64,000 bases of DNA from the NCBI GenBank assembly GCA_965228195.1, contig OZ245797.1, positions 452,088 through 516,087 on the forward strand, read 5' to 3'. Positions 3,411-60,435 of the stretch are shown piece after piece. The notes under the pieces are model-generated. The model saw nothing but the letters and a program-made list of their open reading frames with translations, was not told where the DNA came from and ran no database searches. This DNA comes from Candidatus Cloacimonadales bacterium (lineage in GTDB: Bacteria > Cloacimonadota > Cloacimonadia > G963667145). A program made the translations under genes and the position numbers. Every line of letters starts with the position of its first letter. Position 1 is the first letter of the stretch.

Positions 3411-4403
3411 TTAAACTCTGAGTAGCATCGCCCCAGAGGTAAGTCCCGCCCCGAAGGCGGTCATCATCACCAAATCGCCCTTCTTGATCTTGCCATCTTG
3501 CAAGGCGTGATCGAAAGCCATCGGCACCGAAGCCGCAGAGGTGTTACCGTATTCGTGAATGTTCACCACCACCTTGTCCGCATCTATTCTCATCTTCTTG
3601 CCCAACCCCTCGATGATCCGCATATTCGCCTGATGAGGGACCAGAAAATCTATATCGTCAAAAGTTATGCCTGTCCTTGCAGCTAGCTCCTTGCAAACGG
3701 CGTGCATGCTCTTGATCGCCAGCTTGAATATCTTGTTGCCTTCCATCTGGATTGTGTGCAAGTTTTTGGCAACCGTCTCTTGGCTGGCTGGTTTTCTGGA
3801 GCCACCAGCCTCTTGTTTGAGCAGATCGAAATCTTTGCCGCTAGCTTCCAAATAAGAGCCAATAAACCTAGAGGTGTCGTCTAAACCTGCTCGGGAGTAA
3901 ATACAAGCCCCGGCACCATCTCCAAACAAGATACAGGTGTTTCGGTCTTGGTAGTTGGTGATTCTGGTGAGCGTATCTGCGCCTATCACCAAGACCCGCT
4001 TGTGAAAGCCAGCCTCGATATAAGCCCTTGCCATATCACTGGCGTAGACAAAGCCCGTGCAACCGGCAGAAATGTCCATCGCCGCGGCTCTATCTATCCC
4101 CAACTTTTTTTGCACCAAACAAGCCGTGGAAGGGAAAGAGTAATCGGGAGTGACCGTTGCCACCAGGATCAAATCTATATCTTGGGCAGAAAGACCCGCA
4201 TCTTTTATCGCTTTTTTTGCGGCAACGAAGGCTATGTCGCTAGTGGCTTGATCTTTGTCAGCCCTGCGCCTTTCCTTCATTCCAGTCATCGAGGAAATCC
4301 ACTCATCCGAGGTGTCCAAAAACTTCTCAAAATAGGAGTTGGTAATTACCTCATCCGGTACATAATGCCCAGTACCTTCTAATTTTGCTTGAAATTTTGC
4401 CAT
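3411..4403 (-). CDS. fabH: 3-oxoacyl-ACP synthase III
   Basis: AGCTGF, PHQAN, GNTSAAS motifs; start moved to ATG 4403 (AAGGA upstream). Confidence 0.96.
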   Translation of the reverse strand: MAKFQAKLEGTGHYVPDEVITNSYFEKFLDTSDEWISSMTGMKERRRADKDQATSDIAFVAAKKAIKDAGLSAQDIDLILVATVTPDYSFPSTACLVQKKLGIDRAAAMDISAGCTGFVYASDMARAYIEAGFHKRVLVIGADTLTRITNYQDRNTCILFGDGAGACIYSRAGLDDTSRFIGSYLEASGKDFDLLKQEAGGSRKPASQETVAKNLHTIQMEGNKIFKLAIKSMHAVCKELAARTGITFDDIDFLVPHQANMRIIEGLGKKMRIDADKVVVNIHEYGNTSAASVPMAFDHALQDGKIKKGDLVMMTAFGAGLTSGAMLLRV

Positions 4404-12061: not shown

Positions 12062-12271
12062 AGTCAGTATCTTTTTTATATGGCATATAACTACTCGCTA
12101 TCATCATTATACATCACCCCTATTTGTCTCGCTACCTGCATTGTTTATCTCTCCACTATAAATATTACTCTTCTCGACAAAAAAACTATTCAAAAAATCC
12201 TGTCAACAAAAAAGCCCTCCACATAATGGCAGAGGGCGTCACCAAAATTATCAATCATCAATTATCACCTA

Positions 12272-12331
12272 TTAATTTAACTGAGGAGTTTTTTTTGCCT
12301 AAATTCGCAGTAGTTTGCCCTGAAGCTGTAT
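12272..12331. repeat. 60-bp direct repeat, copy A
   Basis: 56/60 identical to 15095-15154. Confidence 0.9.
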
Positions 12332-15209: not shown

Positions 15210-15329
15210 GTTATGGCGGCGTCCTACTCTCCCACACAGTCGCCCGTGCAGTACCATCGGCGCAGACAAGCTTAACTGCTGTGTTCGGAATGGGAACAGG
15301 TGTTGCCTTGTCGCTATAGCCACCATAAC
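15210..15329 (-). rRNA. rrf: 5S rRNA (ends approximate)
   Basis: CCCATTCCGAACAC, GATGGTACTG, GGGAGAGTAGG motifs; terminal stem GTTATGG/CCATAAC. Confidence 0.96.
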
Positions 15330-15537
15330 AAAGAACTTTAAGTTTTGTAAAACTGCTAAAGTTTTAAGTCTTATAATGAGCGCTTATTTTCTTCCAAATT
15401 TCGCTCATTCACTGTGTCTTTGACACAGCTTCGAGCTTATTTGTCGAAAATCAGCACTTTTACAAAACTTAACTTTACCAAATTTTAGTAAATTTTTGTT
15501 ATAGTAAAAAGTTGGTGAGATATTAAAAAGAAAAAAA

Positions 15538-18503
<2,966 letters not shown>

Positions 18504-18601
18504 TAATTCTCTTTAATTATCTCACCACTTCTATAAAATTTCTATTCAAAAGATCGAAAAATATTTTTTGCCGCTGATTGCGACTTTTTACTCTAAATAA
18601 A

Positions 18602-18677
18602 TGGTGGAGGATAACGGATTCGAACCGTTGACATCTTGCTTGCAAAGCAAGCGCTCTACCAGCTGAGCTAATCCCCC
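18602..18677 (-). tRNA. tRNA-Ala(TGC)
   Basis: GGGGGATTAGCTCAG...TTGCAA...GTTCGAATCC...CCA. Confidence 0.97.
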
Positions 18678-18738
18678 AGCAAATTGCTGAAGCAATTTGC
18701 AATTAATAGTTTATAATTGACAGTTGATAATTAAGGAG

Positions 18739-19092
18739 CTAACGCACGTTTTTCACCTTTTTGACTATTGCAGTCAAAATTTTGATTATCTCTATCAAAT
18801 CGTTTTTAAGACTAAAAACCTCTTTTTCGCCCAAATATTCACCAGCCAACAAATCGAGCCAATACTCTGTTTCACCAGCCTCTTTGAGAGCTATCGACAA
18901 TTTCGAGACAAAATCTCTTTTGCTTTGCGCATTTTGACTTTCCTTGATGTTCGCACCAATCGAAGTCCCGCTTCTCAAAATCTGCCTCGACAAAACATAC
19001 TCTTTCTTATCAACATTCAAGCTTTTACACAGCTTCACTATCTTTTTAGCAAACACAAACGCTTTCTCGTAAACGATATTTTTTCTTATCAT
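18739..19092 (-). CDS. Four-helix-bundle protein (23S rRNA-IVS / TIGR02436-like, Avd-like fold) in the 16S-23S spacer
   Basis: QILRSGTSIGANIKES..AQSKRDFVSKLSIALKEAGETEYWL family signature; GGAG upstream of ATG 19092. Confidence 0.9.
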   Translation of the reverse strand: MIRKNIVYEKAFVFAKKIVKLCKSLNVDKKEYVLSRQILRSGTSIGANIKESQNAQSKRDFVSKLSIALKEAGETEYWLDLLAGEYLGEKEVFSLKNDLIEIIKILTAIVKKVKNVR

Positions 19093-19190
19093 CTTCCAAA
19101 TCGCTCCAAGCCCCAAAATAATTGCCTTCACAATTATCAATTATGAATTGTCACTTGATAATTCATTTGACACCAAGAAATGGTGTCAAA

Positions 19191-19267
<77 letters not shown>

Positions 19268-19327
19268 ATCAGAATAAAAATTAGGTAGAGTAAACCCAAA
19301 GCCAATCGGCTTTTTCTTTTTTCCTTT

Positions 19328-20895
<1,568 letters not shown>

Positions 20896-59667: not shown

Positions 59668-59822
59668 ATACGGCTAATCAATCAAGAATTCATTTATGTG
59701 GTCAGGCAATTGATAAGTTACAGTGGTTAATTGTTAATTAAAAATAAAAGTGAAAAAATTAACACCATCACTTAGTGAGGAAAGGATGGGGTGGAATTTT
59801 TCATTTTTCATTTCCAATTTTT
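59656..59822. repeat. ~170-bp direct repeat, copy 1
   Basis: Same as 60262-60435 except one substitution and one fewer TTTTCAT unit. Confidence 0.95.
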
Positions 59823-59834
59823 AATTTGGCTATG

Positions 59835-60261
59835 GCTCGCTAGAGCCAAAGCCTTTGGGGTGGTATTCTCCGCTTCATCGAGGTCACTTATTTTCACTTG
59901 CTCGGTTGAGCAGAGACACTTGGCACTCTCTTTGGGTTGAAAATGCAGAGACCAAAGTGATTAGCCAGTCAGGAACAAATCTCGGAGATGCTCCCCACCA
60001 CGGTAATCTGTAAGACATCTCACGACCTGTCTCTAGCGAGTTGAAGCGGAGCGGTTTTCTTTTCTCTCCCCTCTCTTTTCGTTGAGCGTTCAACGAAAAG
60101 AGAGGGACTCACCGTAGGTAAACCACTCGATGAAAGCGACAAGAGTAAGCCCTCCGCAGGAGAAGTAATAATAATTTACTTAGCAAAACAAGGAAGGGAA
60201 CGGGTGCTTACCTGCCCCGCAAAAAAGAATAGCCCCCCACAGGCTTTGTCGCTTCCGCTCC
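59835..60261. other. Highly self-complementary non-coding element (structured RNA/ssDNA or MITE-like; unassigned)
   Basis: Several perfect 9-17 bp complementary pairs and a 17/20 terminal inverted repeat; no credible ORF. Confidence 0.55.
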
Positions 60262-60435
60262 CTGACCACATAAATACGGCTAATCAATCAAGAATTCATT
60301 TATGTGGTCAGGCAATTGATAAGTTACAGTGGATAATTGTTAATTAAAAATAAAAGTGAAAAAATTAACACCATCACTTAGTGAGGAAAGGATGGGGTGG
60401 AATTTTTCATTTTTCATTTTTCATTTCCAATTTTT
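60262..60435. repeat. ~170-bp direct repeat, copy 2
   Basis: Matches 59656-59822. Confidence 0.95.

Follow-up and report, generated by a model that had tools for sequence, protein, structure and literature searches.

How does an intact protein-coding gene come to lie in the spacer of a ribosomal RNA (rRNA) operon, between two tRNA genes, and what might it do there? The question is raised by a 64-kb stretch of DNA from a Candidatus Cloacimonadales bacterium (the window, by which we mean the whole stretch of 64,000 nucleotides that was analysed). It carries a complete rRNA operon on its minus strand, in the order 16S-Ile-Ala-23S-5S. The gap between tRNA-Ile and tRNA-Ala measures 513 nt and contains one long sense open reading frame (ORF). 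An earlier note, made from the sequence alone, had described this ORF as intact, 117 aa long, co-oriented with the rRNAs and belonging to a four-helix-bundle family. The analysis presented here agrees on each of these points and confirms the presence of a protein-coding four-helix-bundle element in the spacer of this rRNA (rrn) operon.

We propose, with a probability of about 0.6, that the element is a cassette of the intervening-sequence (IVS) type: a PF05635 ORF enclosed by inverted arms of tandem heptamers, inserted in the 16S-23S internal transcribed spacer (ITS) rather than in a helix of the 23S rRNA, and promoter-less, self-folding, translated and selected. It is apparently a functional cassette of a kind already known from rRNA operons, in a new placement. 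The most useful new point is that the heptamer arms are family-wide.

The spacer gene and its protein

The ORF scores above the curated cut-offs of both PF05635 (E 1.6e-28, 99.4 bits, cut-off 33.8) and TIGR02436 (E 7e-33, 113.1 bits, cut-off 24), and it matches the solved BT_0352 protein (PDB 2rld) with an E value of 9e-33. An AlphaFold (AF2) model, made with an alignment of 17 sequences, consists of four helices with a predicted local distance difference test (pLDDT) value of 94.4. When this model was compared with solved structures by Foldseek, the top structures were 2rld, with a template-modelling (TM) score of 0.92, and Xcc0516 (2gsc), at about 0.8; by model and comparison alike the fold is the four-helix bundle of these two proteins. 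Next came the Avd chains of diversity-generating retroelement (DGR) complexes (4dwl, 8ub7 and 8ub8), with TM scores of 0.72-0.83, and the likeness to Avd that had been noted for this family is upheld. The structure 2rld contains five chains, and 2gsc is a homopentamer according to a title cited in PMC10053308. The product of the spacer ORF is likely an Avd-like pentameric nucleic-acid binder with a selected function.

Evidence for selection comes from five congeners (G001 to G005; the window genome is G000), which are Candidatus Cloacimonadota metagenome-assembled genomes (MAGs) with chromosomes of 1.54-1.59 Mb, each in a single contig with two rrn copies, here called a and b. Intact ORFs of 115 aa occupy all four copies in G001 and G003, in spacers of 480-488 nt. 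Counts by the method of Nei and Gojobori give a ratio of non-synonymous to synonymous change (dN/dS) of 0.055-0.082 between the ORFs of G001 and G003, at a dS of about 1.1, and the two copies within G001 are separated by 16 synonymous and 4 non-synonymous differences. Between the window ORF and those of G001 and G003, dN is 0.15-0.18 and the proportion of synonymous differences (pS) is 0.67-0.77, so that synonymous sites are saturated; dN/dS is at most 0.09. Where it is intact the ORF is under strong purifying selection (dN/dS 0.055-0.09), and this selection argues indirectly for its translation. An upstream TTG would lengthen the protein to 133 aa; this start is not shared by the congeners. 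A TTGG(A/G)AAG motif preceding the ATG is kept in them.

The window genome is assembled as one 1.56-Mb contig in which both rrn operons hold the ORF and are identical over 901 nt around it. The operons differ at 109 aligned columns, located in the 23S-5S spacer, at three 16S sites and at two 23S sites (17863-17887 and 18150-18249, the latter at 23S position ~252-351), to which the differences between the 23S copies are almost confined; the remainder, including the whole ITS, is identical. Read evidence is available from one public run (X1), which may be the source sample, and those of its contigs that hold the stretch were placed on positions 17900-20100. One contig covers 18731-19117 with no differences at a depth of 1793, and a second form, with a depth of 1731.5, joins 18760 to 19076 with 12 other bases between them. 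The flanks that the two forms share have depths of 3455-3459, and a copy-specific rrn contig (18120-18279) has a depth of 1683. The ORF form and the deleted form are therefore each present at about the depth of one rrn copy, and the assembled state, with both copies filled, is doubtful. The deletion is in frame, with a net loss of 303 nt, and by our reading leaves a frame of 16 codons. These depths are most simply explained by one operon with the intact ORF and one with the deleted form, both of which the assembly renders as filled; equal abundance of two strains would produce them as well. The presence of the ORF in the spacer is not in doubt. An artefact of assembly, in which the ORF would not really belong to the spacer, could appeal to the form without the ORF body, but the same run yields the contig that reads through the ORF without differences, and two other complete genomes have intact homologous cassettes in the same position, while two more have relics. 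We give such an artefact next to no credence.

Spacer states within the genus

It had been suggested that filled and empty spacers be compared in related genomes, and this comparison revealed intact, deleted, arms-only and empty states. In addition to the intact cassettes of G000, G001 and G003, both copies of G002 have spacers of 255 nt from which the middle of the ORF is gone; about 30 N-terminal codons remain, as do the 3' end of the ORF and both arms. The spacer of G005a (136 nt) has arm-like arrays and no ORF, and that of G005b (141 nt) and those of the two copies in G004 (115 nt) lack arms and have an unrelated central segment. In outgroups, represented by distant members of the class, the Ile-Ala gap is a few nucleotides long or one of the tRNAs is missing. 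Elsewhere in copy a of G005, between tRNA-Ala and the 23S gene (L044 880-1203, minus strand), there is an unrelated ORF of 107 aa with a good ribosome-binding site; its product starts like a signal peptide, has a hydrophobic C-terminus and matches nothing in Pfam.

A 16S tree divides the genus into four lineages that form an unresolved polytomy: G000, G002, G001 with G003, and G004 with G005. The element or a relic of it occurs in each of the four, and this fits vertical descent with decay. The spacers show that the ORF decays repeatedly by internal deletion. In the simplest history, the common ancestor would already have had the element in one or more of its rrn copies, and deletion and gene conversion between the copies would have followed; we infer this order of events from a tree that leaves the root within the genus unresolved. 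Across its sister species, and probably also within one genome, the genus offers natural alleles that are intact, deleted or empty. In this group a gene cassette shapes both the length and the sequence of the ITS, and assemblies can resolve rrn copies wrongly.

The earlier note had also assigned to the element two hairpins that abut the tRNAs. Both are real and lie, to within a few bases, where they were described. The inverted repeat after tRNA-Ile has arms of 12 nt (19164-19175 and 19181-19192), and that before tRNA-Ala has arms of 10 nt (18679-18688 and 18691-18700); in each case the arms are 100% complementary. The first hairpin is found in G000, G002, G004, G005a and G005b, with varied sequence and a structure that is kept, and is absent from G001 and G003. 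The second occurs throughout the six species, and some of its pairs are changed in G004. Because the empty spacers of G004 and G005b hold these hairpins too, they are ITS features of the host and not of the insert.

Heptamer arms in the genus and across the family

The space between each hairpin and the ORF holds degenerate heptamers in tandem, which are (AATTGAT)-like in the 5' arm and (AATTATC)-like in the 3' arm; the two types are mutual reverse complements. Over 18 nt each (18715-18732 and 19139-19156) the arms are complementary at 15 positions (83%), as had been noticed before, the 5' arm being a few bases away from the interval 19132-19152 first given for it. In this single sequence the pairing does not exceed chance, and only comparison with other sequences makes the arms significant.

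For this comparison, flanks of 100 nt were taken from PF05635 ORFs at 30 loci of class relatives and at 80 loci on contigs from one genome per species, with members of the genus left out. The duplex formed by the 5' and 3' flanks was scored against dinucleotide shuffles, with a threshold of z<-3, and 300 mechanical ORFs of 80-220 aa from the same loci served as controls. The threshold was passed by 37 of 71 PF05635 ORFs and by 15 of 300 controls (median z, -3.26 vs -0.22), and the flanks exhibited a lag-7 autocorrelation peak (0.455 and 0.491, compared with about 0.28 in controls). In an independent metagenome set of 80 loci, 31 of 53 distinct ORFs passed, with lag-7 values of 0.445 and 0.504. 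These samples, 183 loci in total, are biased toward query-like proteins and do not constitute a survey. Every strong case consists of tandem heptamer arrays, complementary to each other, that begin 0-29 nt from the start and stop codons, and the heptamer itself changes from lineage to lineage: AATGAAT in a Ruminococcus MAG, AATGAGA and GTGAATA in Prevotella, GCAGAAC in an Oscillospiraceae MAG, AATTAAC and CAATTGA in Bacteroidales, and TAATTAG in an Ignavibacteriaceae MAG. The window ORF fits the same description, with complementary tandem 7-nt arrays by its start and its stop.

As judged from these flanks, inverted heptamer arrays by the start and stop codons are shown to be a hallmark of the PF05635 family in many phyla. 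The complementarity and the 7-nt period are kept while the sequence changes, which amounts to covariation at the scale of the family, and this covariation points to a paired structure, to a 7-nt-periodic ligand, or to both. The heptamer array itself is the most likely candidate ligand of the spacer protein, and inverted arrays offer a concrete candidate ligand or structure for the family as a whole.

Within the genus, 27 of 33 columns are invariant in the 3' arm and 19 of 32 aligned columns in the 5' arm (six spacers), and in the ORF 38 of 111 third codon positions and 90 of 111 second positions are invariant. The arms are thus far better conserved than silent sites. The two copies in G003 are one heptamer apart, and strains of Coxiella also vary in heptamer number (PMC4990558). 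An RNAalifold consensus of six spacers contains a 10-bp helix between the arms that closes the ORF into a loop. Flank duplexes in G001a, G001b and G003a reach -25 to -33 kcal/mol, values equalled by none of 200 shuffles, and the minimum free energy (MFE) structures of six of the seven distinct element-bearing spacers (G001a, G001b, G003a, G003b, G002 and the G005a scar) contain 14-23 arm-arm pairs, in registers that vary. An enclosing stem of the IVS type is seen in the consensus and in these six spacers but not in the MFE structure of the window spacer, and it shows no compensatory change within the genus; across the family the arms co-vary. A metagenome scan retrieved no member of the genus (best identity 61%) and hence no extra spacers for covariation.

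Expression, mobility and known systems

If the element is an IVS-type cassette, it would lack a strong promoter of its own and would be transcribed within the rrn precursor. Its arms would fold it into a self-contained stem-loop, and the closing stem would bring the two tRNAs back to the close spacing of the outgroups and leave the processing of pre-rRNA and tRNAs undisturbed. A stem that closes the insert would explain why such inserts are tolerated at the tips of rRNA helices, in the ITS and in stop-start gaps, as at the Prevotella loci. Cleavage by RNase P at the 5' end of tRNA-Ala together with 3' trimming at tRNA-Ile, and/or cleavage by RNase III of the arm stem, would free an RNA bearing the ORF, which would then be translated. 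The RNase P and trimming steps are drawn from what is established for the processing of rRNA and tRNA. The arm stem, when paired, would be a substrate of RNase III, as in the IVSs of 23S rRNA, and a gene for RNase III is present in the genome. Copies of the cassette would pass between the two rrn operons by gene conversion and be lost by deletion.

Several observations weigh against this account. The duplex of the two flanks in the window has a free energy of -21.5 kcal/mol, which 75 of 200 shuffles match, and its best pairing is a different one; that of G003b does not rise above chance either, since 136 of 200 shuffles are as good. Neither the MFE nor the centroid structure of the window spacer contains arm pairing, and local hairpins form instead, although the ensemble nonetheless expects about 12 long-range pairs. 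The closing helix is nearly invariant within the genus, where no compensatory change was found and where two pairs are broken in G003a and G003b, and strong arms were not seen in 34 of the 71 and 22 of the 53 family members sampled. With respect to expression, the spacer ORF has a weak Shine-Dalgarno match, the 5' arm contains a weak sigma-70-like site that may serve the ORF as a promoter of its own, and the homologous ORF of Coxiella is reported to be probably untranslated and decaying (PMC4990558). The window copy is the weakest case of arm pairing. The earlier proposal that the arms could close the ORF into a loop holds for the consensus and for six of seven spacers, and not for the window's own MFE structure; absence of arm pairing, which had been named as grounds for discarding the proposal, is likewise a property of the window sequence alone and not of the element overall.

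The sigma-70-like site raises the possibility that this is an ordinary small gene with its own promoter in an expanded rrn spacer, the arms being promoter or operator DNA and not an RNA stem. The site (TTATCA-17-GATAAT) is on the coding strand just upstream of the ORF, and the unrelated 107-aa ORF of G005a, with its good ribosome-binding site, indicates that the spacers of this genus accept genes. But the site agrees at only 9 of 12 positions, and such sites (5, against 1.9±1.5 in shuffles) are barely enriched. Moreover, across the family the arms stay complementary despite sequence change, which is expected of a stem and not of a promoter. We therefore judge a promoter-driven gene of this sort to be improbable.

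The strong purifying selection on the ORF would also suit a domesticated host regulator or chaperone that acts in trans by binding (AAUUGAU)n arrays in other transcripts, for example in the 3' untranslated regions (UTRs) of large surface-protein genes and of valS, with the rrn site coupling its dosage to growth rate. A genome search found the spacer ORF to be the only PF05635 gene type in the window genome. With a heptamer pattern that allowed up to 2 mismatches, the hits (those in rrn in parentheses) number 22 (8) in G000, 11 (4) in G001, 27 (5) in G003 and 21 (8) in G002, so that 14, 7, 22 and 13, respectively, lie outside rrn in the four genomes that carry the element; there are 0 in G004 and 1 in G005. 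Those in G000 sit between a stop codon and a terminator-like hairpin. However, G004 and G005 are sister species and provide one phylogenetic contrast, G002 keeps its arrays despite a broken ORF, the other five genomes have no array at the site orthologous to that of valS, and the ORF, which has been lost at least twice, is dispensable. Binding of the arrays by the protein is itself putative. A trans-acting role is possible, but on balance we consider it unlikely, and the arrays outside rrn constitute a functional lead and not evidence. The 3' UTR array of valS occurs only in G000, where the downstream regions are not syntenic with those of the other genomes, and says nothing on function.

A wider proposal, tentative and in our estimation quite unlikely, unites protein and arrays in one functional unit, in which the Avd-like pentamer would recognise its own 7-nt repeat, the promoter-less, self-folding cassette would settle in highly transcribed RNAs that can accommodate one more stem-loop (rRNA helices, the ITS, intergenic operon gaps), and solo arrays of the same heptamer elsewhere would be seeded or acted upon. 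If this were true, the rrn-embedded copy would be a growth-rate-coupled RNA-binding factor for the (AAUUGAU)n arrays in 3' UTRs.

Some further observations concern the arrays themselves. In G000, valS and a number of very large genes, which have 750 to 11,073 codons and of which several end in DWDAN, are followed just past the stop codon by single (AATTGAT)n arrays that precede a GC-rich terminator-like hairpin. In G002:C1 the same 20-nt heptamer-array match recurs at 861097, 861308, 861519 and 861730, with a period of 211 nt, as part of a larger tandem repeat. G000 also contains a family of non-coding repeats of about 450-600 nt that end in inverted (AAAATGA)/(AAATTAA) heptamer arrays and adjoin GACCACATAAAT...ATTTATGTGGTC palindromes; the copy at 174694-176249 holds a GIY-YIG ORF. 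Tandem Repeats Finder (TRF) lists 21 AAAAATG-class and 17 AAAAATT-class arrays of at least 2.9 copies in this genome.

A different history for the cassette was put forward in the earlier note, which viewed it as a mobile element at the RNA level, with an mRNA protected by the two terminal hairpins after tRNA processing. RNase P and 3' trimming would indeed release an RNA with one of the hairpins at either end, and the family is present in many unrelated genomic contexts, so that some mode of mobility exists. On the other hand, empty spacers hold the hairpins too, and the genome has no copies of the element other than the two in rrn. Outside the genus, rRNA genes were found near none of 103 genome loci and none of 80 metagenome loci (a sample, not a survey), and one of these 183 loci is near tRNAs (tRNA-His and tRNA-Pro); an ITS site for PF05635 was thus not found beyond the genus among the sampled loci. 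The only reverse transcriptase (RT) in G000 is at least 160 kb away, and none was found in the five congeners, two of which have an intact ORF. With only these two copies in the genome, and with an element or relic in all four lineages as vertical descent would have it, the claim of RNA-level mobility finds no support, and we regard it as very improbable.

A link to DGRs or to retro-mobility was rejected as unlikely as well, since no RT or template/variable repeat is adjacent, the lone RT is distant and none was found in any of the five congeners. This RT ORF (L237 4110-5654, minus strand; G000:C1 about 210109-211653) encodes 514 aa with a PF00078 domain. It is bracketed by 56-nt direct repeats 2300 nt apart, the sequence of which is shared with the heptamer-ended non-coding repeat family. 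No template/variable-like repeats were found within 10 kb of G000:C1:210739-211236, and the locus had no match in Rfam, group II introns included.

Among 143 family members the upstream gene was co-oriented in 96 of 117 cases and the downstream gene in 74 of 100. Bacterial genes are usually co-oriented, and these counts, which we judged too near that norm, were not used as evidence. The relatives searched have up to 30 PF05635 matches per genome, and in some Cloacimonadia genomes (G030:C13 and G031:C152; also L022) the genes form clusters in which they are a few hundred bases apart.

Table. Positions of the spacer element, its operon and related repeats and IVSs (window numbering unless a genome or locus is named)
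Feature	Position	Strand	Remarks
16S rRNA	19329-20895	minus	
tRNA-Ile(GAT)	19191..19267	minus	CCA encoded; upstream border of spacer (ARAGORN, Rfam)
Host ITS hairpin directly after tRNA-Ile	19166..19190	minus	10-bp stem, 5-nt loop
5' heptamer arm	19129..19165	minus	(AATTGAT)-like array; holds 5' strand of closing helix, 19131-19140
Leader	19093..19128	minus	Weak Shine-Dalgarno-like purines: GGAG 11 nt and GGAAG 0 nt before ATG
PF05635 / TIGR02436 four-helix-bundle ORF	18739..19092	minus	117 aa (profile, structure, dN/dS)
Stretch absent from the alternative form	18761..19075		12 other bases instead
3' heptamer arm	18701..18738	minus	(AATTATC)-like array; holds 3' strand of closing helix, 18724-18733
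Host ITS hairpin directly before tRNA-Ala	18679..18700	minus	
tRNA-Ala(TGC)	18602..18677	minus	Downstream border of spacer (ARAGORN, Rfam)
23S rRNA	15534-18501	minus	
5S rRNA	15211-15327	minus	
(AATTGAT)n array in window	12246-12277		G000 464333-464364
(AATTGAT)n arrays	G000:C1 812137-812172, 719782-719809, 758257-758283, 176363-176379, 389231-389257		
Non-coding repeat copy in window	about 59795-60426		G000 511882-512513
Non-coding repeat copies	G000:C1 719110-719658, 1400312-1400945, 1517055-1517498, 197417-198365, 174694-176249, others		
GIY-YIG 23S IVS, G003 and G001	L060 4520-4860, L062 4390-4725, L063 4431-4770		23S about position 1250
GIY-YIG 23S IVS, G002	L137 3105-3405		23S about position 280-322

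The closest known counterparts of the spacer cassette are the 23S IVSs that encode S23p/PF05635 proteins, in helix 45 of Coxiella burnetii and in Leptospira; such IVSs are a known home of the family, as the earlier note had stated (PMC4990558). They have in common with the cassette the protein family, an ORF in the sense of the rRNA and flanks that can pair into a stem. Tandem heptamers before the start codon (of S23p in Coxiella), decay by deletions within the ORF and copies that vary are further shared features of the Coxiella IVS, which is cut by RNase III (PMC4990558). The cassette differs in location: its place is between the two spacer tRNAs, beyond the Rfam rRNA matches and not inside a helix of a mature rRNA, and its excision would not fragment the 23S rRNA. 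It differs also in the state of its gene, because the spacer ORF is under strong purifying selection, in contrast to the probably untranslated and decaying ORF of Coxiella (PMC4990558). This selection argues against the view, derived from Coxiella, that such ORFs are dead cargo. In the literature searched, which lay outside subscription journals and supplements, we found no PF05635 gene between spacer tRNAs, and the remark on Coxiella was the only link found between PF05635 and heptamer arrays.

A second comparison is with the insertions in 16S and 23S genes of the candidate phyla radiation (CPR) that encode 23S_rRNA_IVP or GIY-YIG proteins. They too are PF05635 or GIY-YIG ORFs in rRNA operons without intron features, but they lie inside the rRNA genes, and excerpts of the report do not mention the word spacer (bioRxiv 10.1101/2024.02.27.582315). 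The congeners resemble the CPR in having GIY-YIG ORFs in 23S IVSs. Each of these IVSs, about 300 nt long and with a perfect 17-bp stem, codes for a GIY-YIG protein of 84 aa (PF01541, E 2e-16 and 1e-14) downstream of a strong AAGGAG ribosome-binding site. Two further IVSs in L060, of 85 nt, have the same stem and no ORF and are located at about 23S positions 151 and 614. In the window, 18150-18249 contains a short stem-loop where G002 has its GIY-YIG IVS, and small stems of this kind may be IVS relics.

The likeness to the Avd proteins of DGRs is one of fold, that is, of the four-helix bundle, and homology is stated in PMC10053308; the neighbours of the spacer ORF, unlike those of Avd, are tRNAs and rRNAs. 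PF05635 proteins are very common, and since the first IVS reports their role outside DGRs has not been known. The spacer copy is of interest in this respect in that it is fixed where transcription is certain and where there are no confounding neighbour genes.

Finally, the arms recall the genome-wide heptamer repeats of other bacteria, which are likewise tandem 7-nt intergenic arrays near start codons, sometimes in convergent pairs (PMC4692102, PMC4679880). Examples are the GGGAATC heptamers of Xanthomonas, with 70-75 convergent pairs, and GGGGA(C/T)T in Nostoc (PMC4692102), as well as TAACTGA in Beggiatoaceae, cyanobacteria and Bacteroidetes (PMC4679880). The excerpts of these papers contain no mention that we found of a PF05635 protein. 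Arrays of the type that encloses the spacer ORF may also explain some of the heptamer repeats in Xanthomonas, cyanobacteria and Beggiatoaceae.

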